Source of the DNA: Oscillospiraceae bacterium
Lineage (GTDB): Bacteria > Bacillota > Clostridia > Oscillospirales > CAG-272
Direction: 5' to 3'
DNA length: 31,292 nucleotides
Assembly (NCBI GenBank): GCA_015065395.1
Contig: SVQJ01000001.1
Span: 1-31,292, forward strand
This document shows, piece after piece, positions 1-25,343 of the stretch. Positions within the stretch are counted from its first letter, which is position 1, and every line of letters starts with the position of its first letter. Made by a program: the position numbers and the translations under genes. The notes beneath the pieces are model-generated. The model saw only the letters and a list, made by a program, of their open reading frames with translations, did not search any database and had not been told where the DNA came from.

Positions 1-730
1 TGTCGCCTGTGTCTTCGTAGGGATCCTTAACGAGAGCGTCCAGGGTCTTCTTTTCATCGTCGGACATACGGTCGGAATCGATATTGAACCAACGGAGAAC
101 GGTCTGCTGTACCTCAAGCCTTGTGGTAACGAAAATTCCCAGGTTGCGAACGGATGCATCGGTATATACAGAGGATGAATGGTAAGCATCATATACCGTA
201 TAGGGGATGGTTCCGCCGATATAAAGAGAAAGCACGCATATTATATGCGTCAGCAGAATGCCCAGCGCAGTCAGACAAGGCAGGCGCCAATCCATTTTCC
301 CGAAATGTATGTAATTGAATCTTGAAAAAGTGAAAACAATGCATACGGCAACGGGAATAATGAGGACGATCAGCCCGAGAAGTGACTGAAGGATGGCAAA
401 CCATACCTGAGAAGAGAAGTTGGCGAGAGCATCGCCGCCCAGACCCACAGAGGAGATGGAAAGAAATCCTTTGAATACGGTGTAGTACACAAGATGCACG
501 CAGCACCATATACTCATTGCGGCAATAAGCACGTTGAAAACGATCTTCATGGGGAGCTTGTCTGTAAAGACTGTGGTGAAGAAAAGAACTCCTGCCAGAG
601 GAATACAGAAAGCAACGGTATATAGAAAACGAATGTCAAGTTCTCCGATAGTGAGTAATCTCAGCATCGTTTCCAGATAAAGGGGCACAGCATAGCAGAT
701 GCCGAGAGTGATAAGTCTTTTTTTCAGCAT
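1..730 (-). CDS. Polytopic membrane protein, probably the N-terminal membrane region of an LTA synthase/sulfatase family protein (partial, runs off window start)
   Basis: Not in the ORF track because no stop lies in the window. Manual translation from ATG at 730 (GGAGG RBS at 736-740) gives MLKKRLITLGICYAVPLYLETMLR... with several hydrophobic helices plus segments VHLVYYTVFKGFLSISSVG and SVRNLGIFVTTRLE, which resemble clostridial LTA synthase family N-termini. The catalytic domain is outside the window. Confidence 0.6.
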   Translation of the reverse strand, partial: MLKKRLITLGICYAVPLYLETMLRLLTIGELDIRFLYTVAFCIPLAGVLFFTTVFTDKLPMKIVFNVLIAAMSIWCCVHLVYYTVFKGFLSISSVGLGGDALANFSSQVWFAILQSLLGLIVLIIPVAVCIVFTFSRFNYIHFGKMDWRLPCLTALGILLTHIICVLSLYIGGTIPYTVYDAYHSSSVYTDASVRNLGIFVTTRLEVQQTVLRWFNIDSDRMSDDEKKTLDALVKDPYEDTGD

Positions 731-850
731 AGATACCTCCAAAATACAATCATAATTAGTGTACAACTTTTGTGTGTAAAAATCAAGAGTAAAGAGTTAA
801 CATATTTTGTTATTTGTCGAAAAAAGATTCATTTATTATGCCCAAATATG

Positions 851-879
851 TTGACAAATACCCCCAGGGGGTATATAAT
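851..879 (+). promoter_or_regulatory. Sigma-A promoter of csoR-copA
   Basis: TTGACA (851-856), 17-bp spacer, TATAAT (874-879): perfect consensus. Confidence 0.9.
858..874. promoter_or_regulatory. CsoR operator
   Basis: Perfect inverted repeat ATACCCCC-A-GGGGGTAT in the -35/-10 spacer directly upstream of csoR. Matches the C-tract/G-tract form of CsoR boxes. Confidence 0.88.
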
Positions 880-923
880 CAGAATAAAGAGCATATATGG
901 TAAATGATAGGAGTGATGCGTGC

Positions 924-1223
924 ATGGAGGAAAAATGCTGTTGCGAAAGAAAAAAGATGCGCAGTGAGGAAGAATATAAATATCTTGTAAACCGTCTGAA
1001 CCGAATAGAGGGGCAGATAAGAGGAATACGCAATATGGTGGAAAAGGACGCATATTGCACCGATATAATAATGCAGGTGAGCGCGGCGGGAGCGGCTCTG
1101 AATTCTCTGAATAAGGAGCTTCTCGCCCGTCATATAAAGACCTGCGTTGAAAATGATGTGAGGGAAGGAAAGGAGGAAAGCATAGATGAGCTTGTCAGGG
1201 TCATCGAAAAGCTCATGCGATAA
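924..1223 (+). CDS. csoR: Copper-sensing transcriptional repressor CsoR
   Basis: RLNRIEGQIRGI, YCTDII and HIKTCV give the Cys-His-Cys Cu(I) ligands. Start 924 chosen from AGGAG at 909-913; the track start is 897. Confidence 0.93.
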   Translation: MEEKCCCERKKMRSEEEYKYLVNRLNRIEGQIRGIRNMVEKDAYCTDIIMQVSAAGAALNSLNKELLARHIKTCVENDVREGKEESIDELVRVIEKLMR

Positions 1224-3729
1224 GCGTGAAAGCTATGATATAACGGGAATGAGCTGCAGTGCCTGCTCTGCCAGAGTGGAAAAGGCAGTAAGCGCAGTTT
1301 CGGGTGTCAGCTCCTGCTCGGTCAGCCTTCTCACAAATTCCATGCTCGTCAGCGGAGATGCGTCTCCCGATGCCGTGATGAAGGCAGTTGAAGCGGCGGG
1401 CTATAAGGCAAGCAGAAAGGGGGAGGCAGAGAGGAAAAGTAAAGAATCGGATGCTCTCATGGATCGGGAAACGCCCGTGCTTCGCCGCCGCCTTATATGG
1501 TCATTGGGATTTCTTTTGGTGCTCATGTATTTTTCCATGGGATATACCATGTGGAATTTTCCCTTGCCGGATTATTTTGATAAATGTCTTCCGGCGGTCG
1601 CCCTGGTGCAGATGCTTCTTGCAGCTGCGGTGATGGTTATAAATCAAAGATTCTTCATAAGCGGCTTTAAGGCGCTTTTCCACCGCTCTCCAAATATGGA
1701 CACTCTGGTGGCCATCGGATCTGCCGCCTCCTTTTTGTACAGCGTTTATCTGACCTTCAGAATGCTGTGGGGACAGAGCACGGGAGATATCCATCTCGTT
1801 CACGAGAGCCTGCACGGCCTTTATTTTGAGAGCGCGGCAATGATCTTAAGCCTTATCACCGTTGGAAAGATGCTTGAAGCACGCTCCAAGGGAAAGACCA
1901 CGGATGCAATCCGAAGCCTTATGGAGCTTTCCCCCGAGACCGCAAGGGTGATAGTTGACGGTGAGGAGAGAGAGGTGCCCGTGGAAAATGTTTCGGTGGG
2001 CGATATCTTTGTTCTCCGCGCAGGAGACCGCGTCCCCGTGGACGGAGTTATAATCGAAGGAAATTGCTCGGTGGATGAATCCTCTCTCACCGGAGAGAGC
2101 ATACCTTTGGATAAAGGCGTTAACGGTAAGGTCAGCAGCGCAACCGTGAATATTTCGGGCTACGCGCTTTGCCGCGCAGAAAGAGTGGGAGAGGATACTG
2201 CACTCTCCCAGATCATAAAGACCGTAAGGGAAAGCGCCGCAACAAAGGCACCCATAGCAAAGGCGGCGGATAAGGTTTCCGGAGTGTTCGTTCCGGCTGT
2301 TATGGCAGTGTCGCTTATAACGTTTGCTGCTTGGATGCTTCTTCGTCGGGGATTCGGCTATGCGGTGATAAAGGCCATATCCGTTCTTGTTATAAGCTGT
2401 CCCTGTGCTCTCGGCCTTGCAACTCCCGTGGCAATTATGGTCGCAAGCGGAAAGGGGGCAAAGGGAGGAATACTTTTCAAAACCGCCCAGGCTCTTGAGG
2501 AAACGGGAAGAGCTCATATCGTGGTTCTTGATAAAACAGGAACCGTCACAAAGGGGGAGCCAAGCGTAACCGATATCGTTAGTGCACCCGGATACGGTGA
2601 AAGGGAGCTTCTTTCCTACGCTTATTCTGTGGAAAGCAAAAGCGAGCATCCTCTGGCTTTCGCAGTGGTGAAGGCCGGTGCCAAAAGGAATGCGGAGCTT
2701 TTGGCAAGCGATGGTTTCGAAACGCTTGTGGGTAACGGAGTTCGTGCTTTTGTAAACGGAGAAACAGTGCGCGGGGGAAGCCTTGCCCATATTGAAGGCG
2801 TCGTCAAAGTGGACGAAGATATGAGAAGGAAAGCGCAAGAGCTTGCATCGCAGGGGAAAACTCCGCTGCTTTTTGCAAAGGGCGACAGCCTTTTGGGAAT
2901 TGTTGCCGTTGCTGATGAGGTGAAGTCAGACAGCCGCTCTGCGGTATCAGCCCTTCGCAAAATGGGCCTTAGAGTGGTGATGCTCACGGGCGATAATGAA
3001 CGAACAGCCAAAGCAGTTGCAGCCGCAGTGGAGATCGATGAGGTAATCGCGGGAGTCCTTCCCGATGAAAAGGCACGCAAGGTAAAGCTCTTAAGGGAAG
3101 AGGGCAAGGTGATAATGGTGGGAGACGGTATAAACGATGCTCCTGCCCTCGCCGGTGCGGATATTGGAATGGCAATAGGTGCCGGAACCGATATCGCAAT
3201 AGATGCGGCGGATGTTGTTCTGATGAACAGCTCTCTTTCGGATGTGGCGGCGGCAATAAGGCTCAGCCGCAGAGCTCTCAGAAATATCCACGAGAATCTT
3301 TTTTGGGCATTCGTGTACAATGCAGTGGGGATCCCTCTTGCGGCAGGTGCCCTTGCATGGCTCGGCCTTTCCTTGAGCCCTATGTTTGCGGCTCTGGCGA
3401 TGAGCCTTTCAAGCTTCTGCGTGGTCACCAATGCATTGCGCCTGAATCTTGTTGATATACATTCTCCCAAAGGGGATAGAAAAGGAAAAACAAATAAAGG
3501 ATCAAAGGAGAAAAAGCAAATGAAAAGAACCGTTAAGATCGAAGGAATGATGTGCCCCCATTGCGAGGCAAGAGTGAAGAAGTGCCTGGAGGAGCTTAGC
3601 CAGGTCGCAGAGGCCATAGTGAGTCACGAGAAGGGCACTGCAGACCTTACTCTCGTATCGGAAATTTCCGATGCAAAGCTTAAGGAAACGGTAGAAGCTC
3701 AAGGATATAGCGTTCTTTCCATAGAATAA
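1186..3729 (+). CDS. copA: Cu(I)-translocating P1B-type ATPase with N- and C-terminal HMA domains
   Basis: GMSCSAC, TGES, CPC, DKTGT, HP, GDGIND, YN and MSLSS motifs; C-terminal GMMCPHC HMA domain; AGGAGG at 1171-1176. Confidence 0.96.
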   Translation: MSLSGSSKSSCDKRESYDITGMSCSACSARVEKAVSAVSGVSSCSVSLLTNSMLVSGDASPDAVMKAVEAAGYKASRKGEAERKSKESDALMDRETPVLRRRLIWSLGFLLVLMYFSMGYTMWNFPLPDYFDKCLPAVALVQMLLAAAVMVINQRFFISGFKALFHRSPNMDTLVAIGSAASFLYSVYLTFRMLWGQSTGDIHLVHESLHGLYFESAAMILSLITVGKMLEARSKGKTTDAIRSLMELSPETARVIVDGEEREVPVENVSVGDIFVLRAGDRVPVDGVIIEGNCSVDESSLTGESIPLDKGVNGKVSSATVNISGYALCRAERVGEDTALSQIIKTVRESAATKAPIAKAADKVSGVFVPAVMAVSLITFAAWMLLRRGFGYAVIKAISVLVISCPCALGLATPVAIMVASGKGAKGGILFKTAQALEETGRAHIVVLDKTGTVTKGEPSVTDIVSAPGYGERELLSYAYSVESKSEHPLAFAVVKAGAKRNAELLASDGFETLVGNGVRAFVNGETVRGGSLAHIEGVVKVDEDMRRKAQELASQGKTPLLFAKGDSLLGIVAVADEVKSDSRSAVSALRKMGLRVVMLTGDNERTAKAVAAAVEIDEVIAGVLPDEKARKVKLLREEGKVIMVGDGINDAPALAGADIGMAIGAGTDIAIDAADVVLMNSSLSDVAAAIRLSRRALRNIHENLFWAFVYNAVGIPLAAGALAWLGLSLSPMFAALAMSLSSFCVVTNALRLNLVDIHSPKGDRKGKTNKGSKEKKQMKRTVKIEGMMCPHCEARVKKCLEELSQVAEAIVSHEKGTADLTLVSEISDAKLKETVEAQGYSVLSIE

Positions 3730-3833
3730 GGGAATTTTTGAGCAATTTTCATAACAAAATGCCCTAAAATACCTAATATTGTACCAAAAAATTTATTTAT
3801 CGGGGCAAATTTTGAGAAAATAAGAAAAACTAC

Positions 3834-3862
3834 TTGATTTTGCTTTTTTTCTCTGTTATAAT
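3834..3862 (+). promoter_or_regulatory. Sigma-A promoter of ptsH
   Basis: TTGATT, 17-bp spacer, extended TG-n-TATAAT. Confidence 0.7.
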
Positions 3863-3917
3863 TAAGCAAATATTAGCCGAGGTACTCGGTATATAATTCG
3901 ACTCAGGAGTAGTTAAG

Positions 3918-4181
3918 ATGGTTTCACGCGAAGTAACTATAAAAAACAATGTAGGTCTCCATGCCAGACCCGCAACTTTCTTTATTCAGAAGGCAAACTC
4001 TTTTAAGAGCTCTATTTGGGTTGAGAGAGAGGATCGCAGAATCAATGCGAAGAGTCTCCTCGGTGTTCTTTCCCTCGGTATCGTTAAGGGTATGAACATT
4101 ACCATTATTGCTGACGGTCAGGACGAGAATGAGGCTGTAGAGGGTCTCGCTGCATTGATCGACACAGGCTTCAGCGAATAA
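3918..4181 (+). CDS. ptsH: Phosphocarrier protein HPr
   Basis: GLHARPA (His15 site) and NAKSLLGVLSL (Ser46 site); 87 aa. Confidence 0.96.
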   Translation: MVSREVTIKNNVGLHARPATFFIQKANSFKSSIWVEREDRRINAKSLLGVLSLGIVKGMNITIIADGQDENEAVEGLAALIDTGFSE

Positions 4182-4204
4182 TCAAAAGAACTTTGATCGA
4201 AGCG

Positions 4205-14936: not shown

Positions 14937-14963
14937 AAAAAATAGTTGAAAGGAATTAAAAAT

Positions 14964-17081
14964 ATGAAAAAAACATTAGGCGCAATTTTAGGAGTATTTC
15001 TTGCACTTGTAACGGTGTTCACCTCAGTCCCCTTTACTGTAAGCGCGGCAGACAGTGTTGAGCTTATCGGTGAGGTGCAGGGAAGCATGCCTGATATCCG
15101 TATCAGCATTGATTCGGGCTATAGCCTTGACACCATCCACAAAGATAAGGATGAAAAGATCCGTACTAAGGTTTCCGTTTCGGGCGCATGGGACTCTTCC
15201 TTCAATTTCAGCTCCCTCGGCGCTGAGCTTAAGACCCGCGGAAACTCATCATGGCTCATGGATAAGAAGCCCTATCAGATCAAGTTTGATTCAAAAACCG
15301 ATATGTTCGGCATGGGCAAGGCTAAGAAGTGGATCCTTCTTGCAAACTACGTTGACGGCTCCTTTGTCCGCAATAAGATCATTTTCGACCTTGCGGAAAA
15401 TATCGGTATGCCCTACACGATCAAGTCTGTTTTCGTAAATCTTTACATAAACGGAGACTATAAAGGCGTCTATCAGCTTTGCGAAAAGGTTGAGATCGGT
15501 GATAACAGAGTCCCCCTTGAGGACGATTTCGGTGTTATAGCGGAAATGGATGCGGCAACCCGTCTTGAGGGCGAGCAGTTCTATTTCTATTCAAGCGTAA
15601 CCGGCAAGCCCTTCGTTTATAAGGAATATAACACAGATTTTGAGGATGCCCCCGCCGAGGACGTAGCGGCGGTGCGAAGCTTCTTTGAAAACAGAATAAA
15701 TACCCTTGAAAGCGAGCTATATAATAACGGAAAAAACTGGGAGCTTGTTGAGTCTCTCATCGATATCGATTCCGTTATCAAATTCTATTTTATAAATGAG
15801 CTTTGCATGAATGCTGATGCATGCTTTGCCAGCACCTTCTTCTATATCGACGGTAAGGACGATATTCTTCACATGGGCCCCTTATGGGACTATGACCGTA
15901 TTTTCGGCTATTACGATTATGTCGGAGGATATGTGCAGGGAACCGAGGAGGATTTCTTAAAGAATATCACCGATTGCACGGATAAGCAGAGAGTCGAGTG
16001 GTATAAGATGTTCTTCCAGTATCCCGAGTTCGTAGAGCGCGTAAATGAGCTTTACTCAGAGGTCATCAAGGATGAGTTTGATGCTGAGCGCATCAATGCA
16101 ACAATCGATGCATATCAGAAGCTCCTTTACAACAGCCTTATGAGAAATTACGTGGACGAGGGGTGGGCGCTCTTCCACAATAACTCCGAGGCTGAGTTCT
16201 TCTCAAACCGCACAGATGCAACAAACTATCTGAACTTCACAACAAATTATCTTAAGAATAATATTAAGGACAGAATTGAATATCTCAATTCCGCATACGG
16301 AAAATACGTTCCCGCACTCTTCTATCAGCAGAACGACGGCAGAGTATACAGCGGTGGCTCAATGACAGACAGCGCCAATCTTTCAAGCCTGGAAATGAGC
16401 CTTGACAGCTCTATCGACGGCGGTATAAGCTACATCGGATCAAGTCCTTCCGGAACGATCCCTGCCGTGGCTGACGGAGAGCGTCTCTCCGGTGTGGATA
16501 TTTCAGGATTAAAGATAAGTCTCACGGGTAATGTGAAAAATTATTTCTCCGTTCAGTACAGGGTCTGCGTAAACGGAAACTGGAGCTCTTGGGTGTCCAA
16601 CGGAACGTTGGCAGGCTCCAGAAGCGGAAGCCCGATAAAGAGGATACAAGTACGGCTTGTAGAGAAACAGGATGTTGTCCTCGGCACGGTCAGCTTTGAT
16701 TGCGCCGGTGTGGCTCAGATGGATAGTGTCACCGATGTTGTTGGAGATGTGGTCGTTCTTCCCGAAATGAGTGCTGAAGGCTATATCTTTAACGGCTGGT
16801 ATGCAGATCCCCTCTATAACGAGAAAATAGAAAGTATCACCGTAAGTGAAGGGGATACAACTGTTTTCGCTTCCTTCACAGAGGAAAGACCTGTGATCGT
16901 CGGTGATATCGACGGGGATGAGAATCATAGCTCAAGGGACGTAAATTTGCTTATGAAATGCGTTGCCGGCGCCACTGTTCTGACGGAAAAGCAGATGACG
17001 GCGGCTGATATGAACGGCGACGGCCTGGTTACCGCAACTGATGTGAATATGCTTATCCGCAAGGTGGCGGGAATACTTTGA
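14964..17081 (+). CDS. Secreted CotH-family kinase with ChW-like region, InlB-B/Listeria-Bacteroides-like repeat and C-terminal dockerin
   Basis: Signal peptide. CotH motifs KTRGNSSW, KKPYQIKF, WILLANY, YKGVYQLCEK and GPLWDYD. YRVCVNGNWSSWVSNG resembles ChW repeats. GYIFNGWY repeat. Duplicated Ca-binding loops GDIDGDENHSSRDVNLL and ADMNGDGLVTATDVNML. Confidence 0.85.
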   Translation: MKKTLGAILGVFLALVTVFTSVPFTVSAADSVELIGEVQGSMPDIRISIDSGYSLDTIHKDKDEKIRTKVSVSGAWDSSFNFSSLGAELKTRGNSSWLMDKKPYQIKFDSKTDMFGMGKAKKWILLANYVDGSFVRNKIIFDLAENIGMPYTIKSVFVNLYINGDYKGVYQLCEKVEIGDNRVPLEDDFGVIAEMDAATRLEGEQFYFYSSVTGKPFVYKEYNTDFEDAPAEDVAAVRSFFENRINTLESELYNNGKNWELVESLIDIDSVIKFYFINELCMNADACFASTFFYIDGKDDILHMGPLWDYDRIFGYYDYVGGYVQGTEEDFLKNITDCTDKQRVEWYKMFFQYPEFVERVNELYSEVIKDEFDAERINATIDAYQKLLYNSLMRNYVDEGWALFHNNSEAEFFSNRTDATNYLNFTTNYLKNNIKDRIEYLNSAYGKYVPALFYQQNDGRVYSGGSMTDSANLSSLEMSLDSSIDGGISYIGSSPSGTIPAVADGERLSGVDISGLKISLTGNVKNYFSVQYRVCVNGNWSSWVSNGTLAGSRSGSPIKRIQVRLVEKQDVVLGTVSFDCAGVAQMDSVTDVVGDVVVLPEMSAEGYIFNGWYADPLYNEKIESITVSEGDTTVFASFTEERPVIVGDIDGDENHSSRDVNLLMKCVAGATVLTEKQMTAADMNGDGLVTATDVNMLIRKVAGIL

Positions 17082-17137: not shown

Positions 17138-17387
17138 ACGGATGGATATAAGGCTTTCTCGTTCTTTCCTTGAAAGGAAAGAACCAAAGGAACTTTAAGA
17201 AGACAAAGATTACGAAAAAGGCAAAAAGGCCCTAAAAAGAGGAATGCTCACAAAAATGAACGAGCTCATTTTTGTGAGCATTCCTCTTTTTAGGTTAGGG
17301 CACCTGGGCGCTGCCTTTTGCCTTGCAAGATTCAGCTAAACCCTTATGTAAAGTTTTTTGCAGAGCTTTTTTTCAAAAAAGCGACCG
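17138..17387. repeat. Structured intergenic repeat, copy 1 (MITE/REPIN-like)
   Basis: 52 bp (17155-17206) identical to 23332-23383 and collinear similarity over the whole length. Terminal hairpins plus a central perfect 29-bp stem (17231-17294). Confidence 0.9.
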
Positions 17388-19594: not shown

Positions 19595-20962
19595 ATGATC
19601 AAAGCTATTCTTGACCCCCAGTTCCGCCCCGCGGCAGTGGTTATCGCAGAGTTTAAGAAGGCAGTGGCAGAGGCAGGCGGAAATCCCCTGGTTATCGCTG
19701 TTGAGAGAAACAAGGGCTATGTTTCCACCTTCGCTATCGACGTATTTAAGGACGGCACAGGCCATGACGAAGAAAACTACGAGGTTATCGAGCGCTTGGT
19801 TAAGACTCTTCTCTGGATCTACGGCGGTTATAAGGTAACCATCGCAGGCTCAAAGAAGATCTACGAGGGAATCGCCAATGCTTATTGCAAGGGTGGCGCG
19901 AGAGAGTTTGATGCAGACTTTATGGCTCGCGTTTACGAGGCTCCCTTTGAAGTGCTCTACTGTGAGAATGTTGCAGATGCTCCCAAGGAAAATCAGGCAG
20001 CAGCTCCCGTAGGCCGTCATCTTGACGGTTGCCGTATCGGCTTTGATGCCGGCGGATCCGACAGAAAGGTTTCCGCTGTTATCAACGGTGAGAGCGTATA
20101 CTCCGAGGAGGTTGTATGGTTCCCCAAGCTTCAGTCCGATCCCGATTATCACTATCAGGGCATTCTCGAGGCTATGAAGACCGCGGCAAGCAAGATGCCC
20201 CGCGTTGATGCTATCGGAGTTTCTTCTGCCGGTGTTTATATCGACAATAAGATCATGGTTGCTTCTCTCTTCCTTAAGGTTTCCGATGAGGACTTTGAGA
20301 AGAAGGTAAAGACCATGTATATCGACGTTGCAAAGGAGATCGGTGAGGATATTCCCATCGAGGTTGCAAACGACGGTGACGTTACCGCTCTTGCAGGCGC
20401 TATGGATCTTAACGATAATAAGGTCCTCGGTATCGCTATGGGTACCAGCGAGGCAGCAGGCTACGTTGACGGTAACGGCAACATCACCGGCTGGCTCAAC
20501 GAGCTCGCATTTGTTCCCATCGACTTCTGCAAGGACGCTATCGTTGACCCCTGGGCAGGTGACTACGGCACAGGTGCTATGTACTTCTGCCAGGAGGGCG
20601 TTATCAAGCTTTCTCCCGCAGCAGGCATCGAGCTCGATCCCGCACTTTCTCCCGCTGAAAAGCTCAAGGTCGTTCAGGGCCTTATGGCACAGGGTGACGA
20701 GAGAGCTGCAAAGATCTATGAAACTCTCGGCGTTTACTTCGGCTATTCCATCGCTTATTATGCAATGTTCTATGATATCAAGCATCTTATCATCATGGGC
20801 CGTGCAACCAGCGGCGATGGCGGTACCATCCTTCTTGAGAATGCTAAAAAGGTTCTCGCTGAGGAGTATCCCGAGCTTTCCATCAACCTCTATATTCCCG
20901 ATGAGAAGAGCCGCCGCGTAGGTCAGTCCGTTGCAGCAGCTTCTCTTCCCAAGATCGGCTGA
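19595..20962 (+). CDS. Atypical ROK-family protein, candidate amino-sugar kinase
   Basis: IGFDAGGSDRK, GVSSAG, NDGDVTALAG and GIAMGTSEAAGY ROK/ASKHA motifs; ~140-aa N-terminal extension; directly downstream of nagAB. Confidence 0.75.
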   Translation: MIKAILDPQFRPAAVVIAEFKKAVAEAGGNPLVIAVERNKGYVSTFAIDVFKDGTGHDEENYEVIERLVKTLLWIYGGYKVTIAGSKKIYEGIANAYCKGGAREFDADFMARVYEAPFEVLYCENVADAPKENQAAAPVGRHLDGCRIGFDAGGSDRKVSAVINGESVYSEEVVWFPKLQSDPDYHYQGILEAMKTAASKMPRVDAIGVSSAGVYIDNKIMVASLFLKVSDEDFEKKVKTMYIDVAKEIGEDIPIEVANDGDVTALAGAMDLNDNKVLGIAMGTSEAAGYVDGNGNITGWLNELAFVPIDFCKDAIVDPWAGDYGTGAMYFCQEGVIKLSPAAGIELDPALSPAEKLKVVQGLMAQGDERAAKIYETLGVYFGYSIAYYAMFYDIKHLIIMGRATSGDGGTILLENAKKVLAEEYPELSINLYIPDEKSRRVGQSVAAASLPKIG

Positions 20963-20976
20963 ATTATTTGATAAAT

Positions 20977-21008
20977 AAAATGGCTGTCGCATTAGCGGCA
21001 GCCATTTT
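20977..21008. terminator. Bidirectional terminator between convergent genes
   Basis: AAAATGGCTGTCGC-ATTA-GCGGCAGCCATTTT (one G-U pair), with A and T tracts on both sides, between the ROK and kinase stop codons. Confidence 0.85.
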
Positions 21009-21011
21009 TGT

Positions 21012-23144
21012 TCAGTTGATCACAAGACTTTCTATAATAACGGAGTTTACGGGGAGACCGGTATCGATTCCTTCTTCATCGTATTGCGTTTGAACCGCAA
21101 CAAGTGCTTCAAGAACGTCAAATCCGTCAACTACCGCACCGAATGCGGCATACTTTCCGTCAAAGTCGTATGCACATTCGTCGGAAAGCCATATAAATAT
21201 TCCGGTCGGATCGGAATAAAGAGGGTTCTTGGCTTTGGACATGGCGATAACCCCCTTTGTGTTGGAGAGAGGATTGTAAAAGCCGTTGTCGCTAAACTCT
21301 CCTTCCACCACCGTTGCGGGACCGTTGCCCGTTTTCACTCCGTAGTAATCACCAAATCCCAAATAATAGTCGTCAAAAACGTGGAAAATGGGAAGACCGT
21401 CGTAATACCCACCCTCTGCCAGCTCAACGAAGTAGCTTACGGTTTCGGGAGCAATGTGTGGATAAAGTTCAAGGGTTATGGTTCCGTAATCCTTAACGTT
21501 GATTTGAGCCTCAATGGGATCGGAATAATCTGCCTCGGGCTTTGCAAAAACGGTGAGCTGAGTTACGGTTCTTTTGCCGTTTCTTTGAATCACAACGGAA
21601 ATTGTGTCCCCGATCCTGCACTGTGTAAAGACGTTCAGAAGATCGTCGGCGGTATTAATTGCCGTGGAATTTGCACTTTCAATCTTATCGCCTTTTTTTA
21701 TGTATTTGTCATTGTATCCCTTTATAACGCTCATAATATATACGCCGCGCTGATTGGAATTGTAAAGAGTATAAGCATCTTCGGCTTCAAATAATGCAAA
21801 GCTGATGCCAAGAAAGGGAACACCCGTCTCCTCGGGGGAAGGCCCTTCTGAATCTGCCGTGTCGTCTGTTTGATCTGTTTTATCTGTTTGCTCGTGGCTG
21901 TCGGCGCTTGAGGTATCCTCAGGTGAAGCCGTTTCCCGATCATTTTCTGTGGTTATAACGGTCTTATCATCCGGACCATCATCGTTGCCTTGCGAAAAAT
22001 AATATATAGCAAAGCCGATCCCACATATTAGTGCAATTAACACCAAAATGAGAATAAAGGCAGATCCCTTGTTTCTTTTTTGTCCGCCTGCATTTTCGGT
22101 GTGGATGCTTTGGTCGAATGCTTGGGCAGATACATCCGGGTTAACGGTCACCGTCTGCGTCGAACGGTCTGCAACGGTCATGGTGGCGGATTTGTCCGTT
22201 ATGTCGTCGATCAGTTGCCCGATGCTTTGGTATCTGTCGGCGGCTGCAACAGCTAATCCCTTCATAAGCGCGGTTTCGATCTCAGGCTTGATGGAGATCC
22301 CAAGCTCCGAGGGCCTTTTCAGCGTGTCGTTAAAAATTCGCTCGTTGGATTCAGGGGGAGTGATTCCCGTTATACATTTGTATAGGGTTGCGCAAAGAGC
22401 ATAAATATCAGTCCAGGGCCCCTGCTCACCGTGGGTGCGGTATTGCTCCTCGGGAGCATATCCGGGCTTCAGCATAACGGACAGACTTTTGTTGGCATCA
22501 GCGGAAACATCTCTCGCGGCACCGAAATCAAGCAGCTTAAGCCCCCCAAGAACCAGGCGGATGTTGTCGGGGCTAATGTCTCTGTGTATCAGATCCTGGC
22601 TGTGGATCTTGGAAAGAGTGTACATAAGGGGCAGGAGCAGATCGATGGCGTGATCCGCACTCATAACACCGTTTTGCTTTATGTATTCCTTCAGATCCAT
22701 GCCCTCAAGATATTCCATAACGATGTAAGCGGTGTTGTTAGCCTCGAAAAAGGACTTGACCGAAACAACGCCCCGTTCTCCGGAGAATTTTGCAAGGATC
22801 CTTGCTTCCTTCAAAAATCTTTCTCTGCCTTTTTCAAAGAAGTCCGACCGGTCCTGATTTTTGCTGCAGGTGATGCTTGCGGAGGCGCTGTTGTTGCGGT
22901 TGACATATCCGCCGGGGAAGAATTCCTTGACTGCAACCTTTGTGCCTGAATCAAGCTCCAGACCCATATAGGTAATACCGAACCCGCCTTCACCGAGTGA
23001 GGCGCCTATGAGAATGTTGCCGTTAAGCACGGTCCCGGGCAAAAGATGATATTCGGGAACAGTGATGCTTGTGCTCTTGTGGCAGAAGGGACAGCTCTTG
23101 TCTCCCGGTGCTATCTCGTTCAGACAGTTAAAGCAGTATCTCAT
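21012..23144 (-). CDS. Membrane Ser/Thr protein kinase: Zn-ribbon, Hanks kinase, TM, acidic linker, PDZ, degenerate cyclophilin domain
   Basis: CFNC...CPFC; GEGGFG, VAVKE, HRDISPDN, DFG, GYAPE and DIYA motifs; TM AFILILVLIALICGIGFAIYYF; PDZ PFLGI...GVYI...GDKI...GDTISVVIQRNG; cyclophilin-like GTITLELYPHIAPETV...DGKYAAFG; AGGAGG RBS. Confidence 0.9.
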   Translation of the reverse strand: MRYCFNCLNEIAPGDKSCPFCHKSTSITVPEYHLLPGTVLNGNILIGASLGEGGFGITYMGLELDSGTKVAVKEFFPGGYVNRNNSASASITCSKNQDRSDFFEKGRERFLKEARILAKFSGERGVVSVKSFFEANNTAYIVMEYLEGMDLKEYIKQNGVMSADHAIDLLLPLMYTLSKIHSQDLIHRDISPDNIRLVLGGLKLLDFGAARDVSADANKSLSVMLKPGYAPEEQYRTHGEQGPWTDIYALCATLYKCITGITPPESNERIFNDTLKRPSELGISIKPEIETALMKGLAVAAADRYQSIGQLIDDITDKSATMTVADRSTQTVTVNPDVSAQAFDQSIHTENAGGQKRNKGSAFILILVLIALICGIGFAIYYFSQGNDDGPDDKTVITTENDRETASPEDTSSADSHEQTDKTDQTDDTADSEGPSPEETGVPFLGISFALFEAEDAYTLYNSNQRGVYIMSVIKGYNDKYIKKGDKIESANSTAINTADDLLNVFTQCRIGDTISVVIQRNGKRTVTQLTVFAKPEADYSDPIEAQINVKDYGTITLELYPHIAPETVSYFVELAEGGYYDGLPIFHVFDDYYLGFGDYYGVKTGNGPATVVEGEFSDNGFYNPLSNTKGVIAMSKAKNPLYSDPTGIFIWLSDECAYDFDGKYAAFGAVVDGFDVLEALVAVQTQYDEEGIDTGLPVNSVIIESLVIN

Positions 23145-23197
23145 AAAAATGAAACCTCCTTTTTATATGATACTGATATTCGTATAATATATGATAT

Positions 23198-23225
23198 ATT
23201 ATAACATATAACCGCTGTATTTCAA
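23198..23225 (-). promoter_or_regulatory. Sigma-A-like promoter of the kinase gene
   Basis: On the minus strand: TTGAAA, 16-bp spacer, extended TG-n-TATAAT. Confidence 0.6.
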
Positions 23226-23315
23226 TGAAAAAAGAACATTTTTTTGTCAAAATGTAACATGAAGGGTGGTTATCAAATTTCGGTTTGACGTGGCGGTGAA
23301 GTAAACCTTTTCTTT

Positions 23316-23595
23316 ACGGATGGATATGGATTTTCTCGTTCTTTCCTTGAAAGGAAAGAACCAAAGGAACTTTAAGAAGACAACGATAGTGGAAAGGCAA
23401 AAAGGCCCTAAAAAGAGGGAATAAGGGGAAAATGAGCTCGTTCATTTTCCCCTTATTCCTTCTTTTTAGGTTATGGCACCTTCGGTGCCTCAGCCAAAGC
23501 AGATTTCTGCTTTGGCGACACCTTTTGCCTTGCATGATTCAGCTAAACCAATTTCTTAAAGTTTTTTGCCAAGCTTTTTTTCAAAAAAGCGGCCG
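23316..23595. repeat. Structured intergenic repeat, copy 2 (MITE/REPIN-like)
   Basis: Collinear with 17138-17387, same orientation. Central 29-bp stem at 23407-23470 (one G-U) and extra hairpins at 23475-23516. Confidence 0.9.
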
Positions 23596-23610: not shown

Positions 23611-24102
23611 TTATTCAACGATGGTAACGCTTACCATTCTCTGATCTCTCATGGGCTTGTCCTGCATATTTGTGGGAACTGACGCGATCTCGTCAACGGT
23701 CTCGATTCCCTCGATGACCTTACCGAAAGCGGCGTACTGACCGTCAAGGAATGTTGCGTCTGCGTGGCAGATGAAGAACTGGCTGGATGCGCTGTTGTAG
23801 TTCTGGCTTCTTGCCATGGAGATAACGCCTCTCTTGTGGGAAAGAGTGTTGTTAACACCGTTGAGAGCGAACTCACCAACGATATTGTGGCCGCTGCCAC
23901 CGATGCCGATGCCCATGGGGTCGCCGCCCTGGATCATGAAGCCTGCAATAACGCGGTGGAAGATAAGTCCGTCGTAGAAGCCCTCGTTTGCAAGGTTCAC
24001 GAAGTTTTCAACGGTCTTGGGTGCAATTTCGGGATAGAGCTCGAGGGTGATATCGGAGCCGCTTTCCATTTCGATCTTTGCCTTGATAATATTGTTTTCC
24101 AT
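23611..24102 (-). CDS. Cytoplasmic cyclophilin-type peptidyl-prolyl isomerase
   Basis: LELYPEIAPKTVENF, FHRVIAGFMIQGGD, SMAR, SQFFI and LDGQYAAFG motifs; catalytic Arg and Gln intact; no signal peptide. Confidence 0.95.
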   Translation of the reverse strand: MENNIIKAKIEMESGSDITLELYPEIAPKTVENFVNLANEGFYDGLIFHRVIAGFMIQGGDPMGIGIGGSGHNIVGEFALNGVNNTLSHKRGVISMARSQNYNSASSQFFICHADATFLDGQYAAFGKVIEGIETVDEIASVPTNMQDKPMRDQRMVSVTIVE

Positions 24103-24125: not shown

Positions 24126-25343
24126 TTATTTTTTATCGCTTTCGGCACTTTCGCCGATAACCTTAACGTATTCAATGGTAATAGTTTCTGTGGGAACGGA
24201 CTTTTCGGTGCCGTAAACGTTATACTCCACCTCAACGTCACCGATCTCCTCCACAACGTCCATGCCGTCGATAACCTTTCCGAAGGCGGCGTACTTTCCG
24301 TCAAGGCTTGCCTTGTGATCGCCGGAGAGACAGATGAAGAACTGGCTGGATGCGGAGTTTGGTGATGTAGCTCTTGCCATGGAGATAACTCCCTTGTCAT
24401 GGGAAAGGGTATTGTTAAATCCGTTGGTCAAAAACTCGCCCTTGATGTTCTCATCGCTGCCGCCGCTTCCGTTACCCTCGGGGTCGCCGCCCTGGATCAT
24501 GAAGCCCTCAACGACGCGGTGGAAGGTAAGCCCGTCATAAAAGCCCTCGTTTGCAAGGCTTACGAAGTTTTCAACGGTTTCGGGAGCGATTCCGGGGTAA
24601 AGCTCGAGAGTGACAGTGCCAAAGTCCTCGACACTCATCTCGACCAGTACAGGCTCTGCATCGGGATCGGGAGCACTTTCCAGCTCCTTTACGCCTGCCT
24701 TGTTTTCAGTGTCCTCGTATGTGTCGGAAACTCTTATATAGCCGACCTTAATTGTTTCCTTGGGAACGGATTTCTCGGTGCCGTAGGAGTTATAATCAAC
24801 CTCAACCTTTGCTATCTCGTCCACAACGTCCATGCCCTTGATCACCTTACCGAAGGCAGCGTAATTTCCGTCAAGACTTGCTTTGTAATTACCGGAGTCA
24901 CAGATAAAGAACTGGCAGGAGGCAGAATCCATGCTGTGGCTTCCTCTTGCCATGGAGATAACTCCTCTGTCGTGGGATAAGGGATTGTAAACTCCGTTTG
25001 CCGAAAACTCACCCTTGATGTTCTTTCCGCTGTTGCCGGTACCGTTGCCCTCAGGGTCGCCGCCCTGGATCATAAAGCCTTTAACGACTCTGTGGAAGGT
25101 AAGACCGTTGTAGAAATCATCAAGAACGAGACCGACGAAATTTTCAACGGTTATGGGAGCAATATTGTGGTAAAGCTCAAGGGTGATGAGGCCGAAGTCC
25201 TCAACGTACATCTCAACTTCAACGATGTCCTGTATCTCGTCCACGCTCTTGATGGCATCCGGCTTGTCCTTGGGCTTTGAATCACAGGAGAACAGGCAAA
25301 GGACGGTGCAGAGGCATAAAATAACAGAAATAAGTTTTTTCAT
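24126..25343 (-). CDS. Lipoprotein with two tandem cyclophilin PPIase domains
   Basis: MKKLISVILCLCTVLCLFSC lipobox-like signal; two complete domains, each with FHRVVxGFMIQGGD and QFFI. Start 25343 chosen from the signal peptide, RBS and promoter position. Confidence 0.9.
   Translation of the reverse strand: MKKLISVILCLCTVLCLFSCDSKPKDKPDAIKSVDEIQDIVEVEMYVEDFGLITLELYHNIAPITVENFVGLVLDDFYNGLTFHRVVKGFMIQGGDPEGNGTGNSGKNIKGEFSANGVYNPLSHDRGVISMARGSHSMDSASCQFFICDSGNYKASLDGNYAAFGKVIKGMDVVDEIAKVEVDYNSYGTEKSVPKETIKVGYIRVSDTYEDTENKAGVKELESAPDPDAEPVLVEMSVEDFGTVTLELYPGIAPETVENFVSLANEGFYDGLTFHRVVEGFMIQGGDPEGNGSGGSDENIKGEFLTNGFNNTLSHDKGVISMARATSPNSASSQFFICLSGDHKASLDGKYAAFGKVIDGMDVVEEIGDVEVEYNVYGTEKSVPTETITIEYVKVIGESAESDKK

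Follow-up and report, generated by a model that had tools for sequence, protein, structure and literature searches.

Within a 31,292-nucleotide (nt) window from an Oscillospiraceae bacterium (assembly GCA_015065395.1, contig SVQJ01000001.1, positions 1 to 31,292), the gene that concerns us, here called P0001, encodes a receptor-type Ser/Thr kinase with a PDZ domain and a cyclophilin fold in its predicted outer part. The single intact frame runs through a Cys4 zinc ribbon, a Hanks kinase domain, one transmembrane (TM) helix, an acidic stalk, the PDZ domain, and the cyclophilin fold (Table 1). A first-pass annotation made from the DNA letters had described this 710-amino-acid (aa) open reading frame (ORF) at positions 21012 to 23144 on the minus strand and had read its product as a candidate sensor of protein-folding stress. 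The ORF list and translation bore the frame out as described, and the coordinates given there for the TM helix, stalk, PDZ, and cyclophilin domain agreed with our re-measured ones to within a few bases. Searches with hidden Markov models recovered Pkinase, PDZ_2, and Pro_isomerase, all above their Pfam cut-offs. Our analyses suggest, with a probability of about 0.6, that P0001 is a functional receptor kinase whose PDZ and pseudo-cyclophilin domains form a non-catalytic, ligand-binding ectodomain, and that it arose through an ectodomain swap confined to this species.

The cyclophilin-like domain has kept its fold. Its match to Pro_isomerase (PF00160) scored 78.9 bits (cut-off, 21.7), compared with 169.7 bits for the neighboring 163-aa cyclophilin, and a phmmer search of the PDB with the domain gave an E value of 8e-14. 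An AlphaFold2 model built from an alignment of cyclophilin rows had block-mean predicted local distance difference test (pLDDT) values of 85 to 98 over most of residues 545 to 710, with a remodelled aromatic loop as its least confident part (block-mean pLDDT, 66 to 77). Foldseek matched this model to solved cyclophilins with template modeling scores of up to 0.88, and the inactive human cyclophilins PPIL2 and SDCCAG-10 were among the top matches.

When the domain was aligned with 38 other cyclophilin domains, it deviated at 18 of the 51 columns that were at least 85% conserved, and the fold core residues were kept. The active-site positions are given below in the numbering of human CypA. Arg55, present in all 38 other domains, is His588 in P0001, and Gln63 and Gln111, each present in 37 of the 38, are Gly596 and Gly648. 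Other replacements are Phe60 by Tyr593, Met61 by Tyr594, Ala101 by Ser636, Phe112 by Ile649, and Leu122 by Phe661, and the replaced stretch at residues 586 to 601 contains three Phe and four Tyr in 16 residues. Among the residues that make up the cyclophilin active site, namely, Arg55, Phe60, Met61, Gln63, Ala101, Gln111, Phe113, and Leu122 (PMC2911226), P0001 retains Phe113 alone (Phe650); the Tyr at position 126 is also kept. Arg55 is the invariant catalytic arginine, and PPIL4, which is without it, is inactive on standard substrates; inactive human cyclophilin isoforms have been proposed to be still able to bind proline peptides (PMC2911226).

These replacements suggest that the cyclophilin domain of P0001 is probably a binding module and not an isomerase. 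The first-pass annotation was right about the fold, but the domain is not a normal cyclophilin, since its catalytic residues are replaced and it scores 79 rather than 170 bits. Its transfer of the Xaa-Pro binding of cyclophilins to P0001 fared worse: given that the invariant arginine and other active-site and groove residues have been lost, such binding cannot simply be carried over, and the domain would offer a remodelled groove at best. In a maximum likelihood tree, the P0001 domain had by far the longest end branch, at 1.9 changes per column relative to a median of 0.33 to 0.41 (~5- to 6-fold). In approximately unbiased tests, grouping of the domain with the cytoplasmic cyp163 genes was rejected (P = 0.006), whereas grouping with the lipoprotein cyclophilin domains (P = 0.21) or with the TM-anchored cyclophilin clade (P = 0.42) was not. 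The long branch prevents placement of the domain in the tree, and a local duplication from the neighboring cyclophilin genes is one possible origin.

The PDZ domain matched PDZ_2 (PF13180) with 41.4 bits (cut-off, 27) and shared 34 to 38% identity with the C-terminal PDZ domains of the HtrA proteases of the genus, including the HtrA of its own genome, which consists of Trypsin_2 and PDZ_2. Its best sequence matches in the PDB were Deg1, DegQ, YlbL, DegS, AlgW, and an RseP-like PDZ. At the sequence level, the carboxylate-loop motif (x-Phi-G-Phi) is kept, with F-L-G-I-S in P0001 aligned with F/Y-V/I-G-V/I-S of the HtrA PDZ domains, whereas Pfam found no Trypsin_2 match, and hence no trypsin-like protease domain, in P0001. 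By this kinship, we assign the PDZ domain to the HtrA protease lineage, as had been read from the letters. The ectodomain was modelled from two separate alignments, one of PDZ rows and one of cyclophilin rows; a combined MAFFT alignment stretched the PDZ rows over the cyclophilin. The PDZ-row alignment gave a model with a mean pLDDT of 33. Structure prediction, which had been proposed as a check, succeeded for the cyclophilin part and was poor for the PDZ part (pLDDT, 32 to 66).

The cytoplasmic half of P0001 has the features of an active kinase. It matched Pkinase (PF00069) with 107.7 bits (cut-off, 31.7), and in an alignment of P0001 with two paralogs from the same genome and six other relatives, the G-loop, the VAVK lysine (K73), the alpha-C glutamate (E113), HRDxxxxN (N194), DFG, and APE were present and invariant in all nine members. 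The four cysteines of the zinc ribbon (C4, C7, C18, and C21) were likewise invariant in 9/9 members, and Pfam zinc-ribbon models matched P0001 weakly (E values of 0.1 to 0.8). Both the intact Hanks kinase and the zinc ribbon of the earlier reading therefore stand. So does the absence of PASTA repeats that it implied: neither Pfam nor NCBIfam found these repeats in P0001, and the NCBIfam model PknB_PASTA_kin (NF033483) matched residues 107 to 427 (the kinase, TM, and stalk region) with 135.6 bits, below its cut-off of 450. NCBIfam models as a whole gave P0001 partial matches only.

By sequence, this half of P0001 belongs to a very large kinase family of Clostridia whose members carry a zinc ribbon and interchangeable ectodomains. 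All but one of 8,000 scored candidates passed an E value of 1e-20. The best 120 relatives were 56 to 66% identical to P0001 in the cytoplasmic half, and their ectodomains contained leucine-rich repeats (LRRs), RCC1, OmpA, or PASTA or were without a Pfam match; none of the 120 had a PDZ or cyclophilin ectodomain. A more distant, 42%-identical homolog with LRRs was present in another family of the same order. The two paralogs in the same genome lie on contig C110 (loci L015 and L016), where they are divergently placed around a gene for a 235-aa PP2C phosphatase. One (761 aa, 66% identical in its inner part) carries an outer RCC1 propeller of six RCC1 repeats, and the other (555 aa, 61% identical in its inner part) carries an outer part of 160 aa without a family assignment. 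The PP2C phosphatase is likely a shared partner of all three kinases. We also considered P0204, the best-scoring relative and one of similar length (719 aa), as a hidden ortholog of P0001 and rejected it, since it consists of two tandem zinc-ribbon-kinase modules. The HRD motif of its second module reads H-N-D, which may make that module the pseudokinase partner of the first in a single chain.

To judge how far the PDZ-plus-cyclophilin ectodomain extends, we inspected the best 150 of 9,874 matches from a HMMER search of 1.84 billion representative proteins, among which P0001 alone covered both domains. A word-index search of 5.8 billion proteins had the same outcome. Neither 40 relatives nor a set of 400 genomes covering 97 genera of the family yielded an ortholog of P0001, and a peptide-pattern scan of 185,579 species genomes found none. 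Our literature search turned up no description of a PDZ or cyclophilin ectodomain attached to a Hanks kinase in bacteria. As far as was searched, this ectodomain is confined to one gut species known only from metagenomes.

An outer cyclophilin on a kinase does have precedent. In P0199 (855 aa), a kinase and TM helix are followed by a helical spacer of ~260 aa and an outer cyclophilin whose active site is intact (FHR...F-I-I-Q-GGD). The ESM Atlas holds Pkinase-plus-Pro_isomerase clusters of 455 and 56 members, mostly from Actinomycetota, according to automatic labels. The novelty that the first-pass annotation had cautiously suggested thus holds for the exact PDZ-plus-cyclophilin ectodomain, which these searches found nowhere else, but not for kinase-borne outer cyclophilins in general. 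What appears new here, judging from these comparisons, is the PDZ and pseudo-cyclophilin ectodomain; kinase-cyclophilin fusions and a kinase family with swapped ectodomains are already present elsewhere. Separately, many Clostridia membrane proteins of ~470 to 490 or ~700 aa (P0024, P0409, P0337, P0361, and others) were seen to carry a catalytically intact outer cyclophilin and one TM helix, and in some of them the cytoplasmic part contains sigma-70 region 4. These proteins may represent an undescribed class of transmembrane regulators.

The kinase gene is not an assembly chimera, a possibility that the earlier reading had set out to check. Separate samples from JGI, ENA, and NCBI provided 23 contigs that encode the identical 710-aa product, each with the same neighboring genes. 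Seven DNA runs from animal feces held at least 80% of the sampled gene words, and in three runs, one 2,439-nt unitig (positions 20921 to 23359) covered the whole gene with zero differences and even depth. A strain variant, P0203, was 95.5% identical and occurred in the same context (L039:6001-8133). Between P0001 and P0203, the ratio of nonsynonymous to synonymous substitution rates (dN/dS) was 0.12 overall. The kinase half had a ratio of 0.09 and the cyclophilin-like domain one of 0.055 (10 synonymous and 2 nonsynonymous changes), and the stalk had the highest in the gene, 0.34. Since the overall ratio is 0.12, the gene appears to be under purifying selection, which speaks against decay. Synonymous divergence between the strains ranged from ~1.0 in codons 1 to 71 to ~0.06 at the 3' end of the kinase gene and from 0.05 to 0.46 in neighboring genes. 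This mosaic is typical of interstrain recombination and suggests that the kinase gene contains a boundary in its 5' part.

The sole strong hydrophobic segment of P0001 spans residues ~358 to 386, and the flank charge around the TM helix is +2 on the N-terminal side and -4 on the C-terminal side. Given these charges, the N terminus, with the zinc ribbon and kinase, is predicted to lie inside and the stalk, PDZ, and cyclophilin domain outside, in agreement with the single-TM topology proposed earlier. The coordinates of these segments are collected in Table 1 together with those of the expression signals and the upstream neighbors.

Table 1. Features of the P0001 locus (positions in the window)
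Feature	Position	Strand	Basis
Complete receptor Ser/Thr kinase gene (P0001), 710 aa, stop included	21012..23144	-	ORF list and translation
Cys4 zinc ribbon, residues 4-21, CxxC-x10-CxxC, predicted cytoplasmic	23082..23135	-	Invariant Cys
Hanks kinase domain, residues 48-269 by Pfam, C-lobe extending to ~316	22197..23003	-	Pkinase PF00069
Single TM helix, residues ~362-384	21993..22061	-	Hydropathy peak 3.1
Acidic Ser/Thr/Asp/Glu-rich stalk, residues 385-440, predicted extracellular	21825..21992	-	Sequence reading
HtrA-type PDZ, residues 443-529	21558..21818	-	PDZ_2 and HtrA kinship
Cyclophilin-like domain, degenerate active site, residues 547-710	21015..21506	-	Pro_isomerase match residues 547-691
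Ribosome-binding site AGGAGG, 10 nt before kinase ATG	23155..23160	-	Sequence reading
Promoter-like TTGAAA-16-TG-TATAAT, 11/12 consensus, extended -10	23198..23225	-	Consensus scan, pattern match only
Hairpin and T-run directly 3' of kinase stop, common to convergent ROK-like gene	20975..21006	.	Sequence reading and scan
Canonical 163-aa cyclophilin, no signal peptide, upstream neighbor	23611..24102	-	Pro_isomerase 169.7 bits, FHR...FMIQGGD intact
Lipoprotein with two canonical cyclophilin domains, upstream neighbor	24126..25343	-	Two Pro_isomerase stretches, 312 bits together

Because a promoter-like site lies upstream of it, the kinase gene probably has its own promoter, and the hairpin at its 3' end is likely a two-way terminator. 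A second terminator-like hairpin stands 3' of the upstream 163-aa cyclophilin gene. The other upstream neighbor contains a lipobox-like L-F-S-C, and since it carries two canonical cyclophilin domains on a lipoprotein, it likely has extracellular foldase activity. The order of an AI-2E transporter, the two-domain cyclophilin lipoprotein, and the 163-aa cyclophilin is conserved in the genus (four congeners). The kinase was absent after the 163-aa cyclophilin in all four congeners, with synteny ending right there.

In the mechanism that we favor, the outer PDZ and cyclophilin-like pair would act as a non-catalytic module for ligand binding. The PDZ domain would take a free C terminus, leaving a second peptide or another determinant to the cyclophilin groove with its remodelled, aromatic-rich make-up. 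Binding would alter the oligomeric state of the ectodomain and thereby trigger the cytoplasmic kinase to autophosphorylate, as has been proposed for PASTA kinases. The PP2C phosphatase whose gene lies between the paralogs on contig C110 would reverse the signal. The gene itself would have originated through an ectodomain swap within the large zinc-ribbon kinase family. Several points weigh against this proposal. With the architecture confined to a single species, cross-species conservation cannot be cited in support of a function, and there is no PP2C gene among the neighbors of P0001. The PDZ models are too poor to assess the PDZ groove or the packing of PDZ against cyclophilin. No RNA runs were listed. 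The estimate of selection comes from one strain pair with few changes, and the PDZ domain, with two synonymous and three nonsynonymous changes, has too few to judge. Finally, His588 at the Arg55 position could in principle keep some catalysis.

This last point bears on the least likely of the alternatives, that prolyl isomerase activity persists in the cyclophilin domain by means of unusual catalytic residues, which would make the protein a kinase-tethered extracellular foldase. The fully retained fold, the basic histidine at the Arg55 position, and the conserved Phe113 and Tyr126 fit this idea. However, the near-universal Arg55, Gln63, and Gln111 are all lost from P0001, the human isoform without the invariant Arg55 is inactive on standard substrates (PMC2911226), and the very long branch fits a release from catalytic constraint. 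We consider it very unlikely, too, that P0001 is a fusion of recent origin, close to neutral and lacking a dedicated ligand, that frequent ectodomain shuffling left as a by-product. Its restriction to one species, its location at a synteny break next to a high-copy repeat, and the shuffling habit of the kinase family would all fit such a fusion, and a single-species shuffle in an ectodomain-swapping family does lend less weight to any special design. The low dN/dS values, particularly that of the cyclophilin-like domain, and the frame that is intact in 23/23 contigs and in the 95.5%-identical variant argue the other way. The PDZ and cyclophilin parts are, moreover, only 34 to 44% identical to any possible donor, which argues that the fusion is not recent.

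The remaining alternatives differ in what the ectodomain binds or does. In the envelope folding-stress sensor envisaged at the outset, the C termini and Xaa-Pro stretches of unfolded or Pro-rich secreted proteins would bind the PDZ and cyclophilin-like domains and activate the kinase. We regard this reading as possible but doubtful. The PDZ domain of DegS senses unfolded outer membrane proteins, and IRE1 and PERK are the unfolded-protein sensors of eukaryotes. The PDZ domain of P0001 is of the HtrA quality-control type with its carboxylate-loop motif kept, and the gene directly follows the genus-conserved cyclophilin pair, one member of which is an extracellular two-domain lipoprotein. The proposed proline peptide binding of inactive human isoforms (PMC2911226) and a Mycobacterium tuberculosis receptor kinase with a DsbG-like, foldase-type sensor domain (PMC1847690) are also in line with it. 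Nevertheless, P0001 has lost most of the groove residues with which active cyclophilins hold proline, so that one cannot count on Xaa-Pro binding. Nor is the kinase a conserved neighbor of the cyclophilin operon, given the four congeners without a kinase there; the cyclophilin genes and the kinase are also separated by a terminator, a repeat of high copy number, and a promoter-like site of the kinase's own. Should P0001 nonetheless read the folding of secreted proteins, with the PDZ gripping C termini, the dead cyclophilin groove holding proline stretches, and joint occupancy activating the kinase, which we entertain with much reserve, it would be a bacterial functional analogue of IRE1/PERK, with a foldase turned into a sensor.

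It is unlikely, in our estimation, that the ligand of the cyclophilin groove is instead something other than a peptide, for example a glycan or cell wall fragment, so that the kinase would report substrate or wall status, as its PASTA, RCC1, and LRR sisters may. An aromatic-rich make-up like that of residues 586 to 601, with their three Phe and four Tyr, is common in carbohydrate-binding sites, the organism has dockerin proteins (e.g., the CotH-dockerin protein at 14946 to 17081), and the sister kinases carry many different sensor folds of non-peptide type. The Pfam scan, however, found no carbohydrate-binding family, the adjoining PDZ is by family a binder of peptide C termini, and the model of the domain is at its least confident in the aromatic loop. 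We would give similarly little credence to an outer module that works outward, as a membrane-anchored holdase or scaffold to which secreted clients or the neighboring lipoprotein cyclophilin would be recruited, with the kinase regulating it or being merely localised. Inactive proteins with a cyclophilin fold are known to bind without catalysis (PMC2911226), and many Clostridia membrane proteins pair an outer cyclophilin with other cytoplasmic modules, such as sigma-70 region 4. Nonetheless, one kinase module combined with many unrelated ectodomains fits inputs on a common output better.

Like the PASTA kinases PrkC, PknB, and StkP, P0001 has its Hanks kinase at the N-terminal, cytoplasmic end and a predicted extracellular sensor at the C-terminal end, with one TM helix between them. 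Unlike these kinases, it is without PASTA repeats or an adjacent PP2C gene, and it adds the zinc ribbon and the PDZ and cyclophilin-like ectodomain. It shares the Cys4 ribbon and the catalytic motifs with the Clostridia zinc-ribbon kinases and differs from them in its ectodomain. P0199 resembles P0001 in joining a kinase to a C-terminal cyclophilin beyond the TM helix but has neither zinc ribbon nor PDZ, and its active site is intact. The PDZ domain is of the same type as in HtrA, DegP, and DegS; P0001, however, is without their trypsin-like protease domain, and its output is a kinase rather than proteolysis. The retention of the cyclophilin fold with a diverged active site recalls PPIL2, PPIL4, PPIL6, and SDCCAG-10/CWC27, among which PPIL4 is also without Arg55 (PMC2911226). 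Those proteins are, however, eukaryotic, nuclear, and spliceosomal, whereas the P0001 domain is bacterial, predicted to be extracellular, and fused to a kinase, and its loss of catalytic residues would be independent. The M. tuberculosis receptor kinase PknE, which bears the DsbG-like sensor domain (PMC1847690), is comparable in that its outer domain resembles a folding catalyst; its sensor has no sequence relationship to that of P0001, and this likeness is an analogy only. The likeness to IRE1 and PERK, with their outer domains that bind unfolded proteins, is conceptual only, and the IRE1/PERK luminal sensor family was not among the Pfam or NCBIfam matches of P0001.

Few bacterial receptor Ser/Thr kinases have known ligands, PASTA domains and muropeptides being the main case. 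PDZ domains bind free C termini, and cyclophilins bind Xaa-Pro peptides. Since both outer families of P0001 thus have a well-understood binding chemistry, the question of its ligand is unusually tractable in vitro. P0001 would also provide a clean natural example of a cyclophilin enzyme fold that lost catalysis after its recruitment into a sensor, and it adds evidence that the large Clostridia kinase family evolves through ectodomain swaps. Given that it occurs in a single uncultured gut species and that kinase-cyclophilin fusions are already in the collections, P0001 is better regarded as a biochemical test case than as a new kind of system.

The wider surroundings of the gene showed further features. 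An intergenic repeat of ~250 nt is present at positions 23332 to 23587 and 17155 to 17380, in copies that are 73 to 84% identical and that each contain a 29-bp perfect or near-perfect hairpin (17231 to 17294 and 23407 to 23470). The two copies have the same orientation and lie on either side of the nagA-nagB-ROK-kinase block. The summed word depth of the repeat in the metagenome runs was 235 to 4,200, compared with ~10 in the flanking genes, which indicates a very high-copy element. An Rfam search of the repeat and the spacer upstream of the kinase found no family at threshold, with sub-threshold hairpin look-alikes only. Downstream of nagA-nagB, an atypical ROK-like protein of 455 aa is encoded at 19595 to 20962 on the plus strand (ROK, 20.9 bits; cut-off, 22.9), convergent with the kinase gene and sharing the terminator hairpin with it. 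The dockerin-bearing protein mentioned above is also encoded on the plus strand and contains CotH kinase-like, Flg_new, and dockerin type I domains; the last of these suggests assembly of a cellulosome-like complex by the organism.

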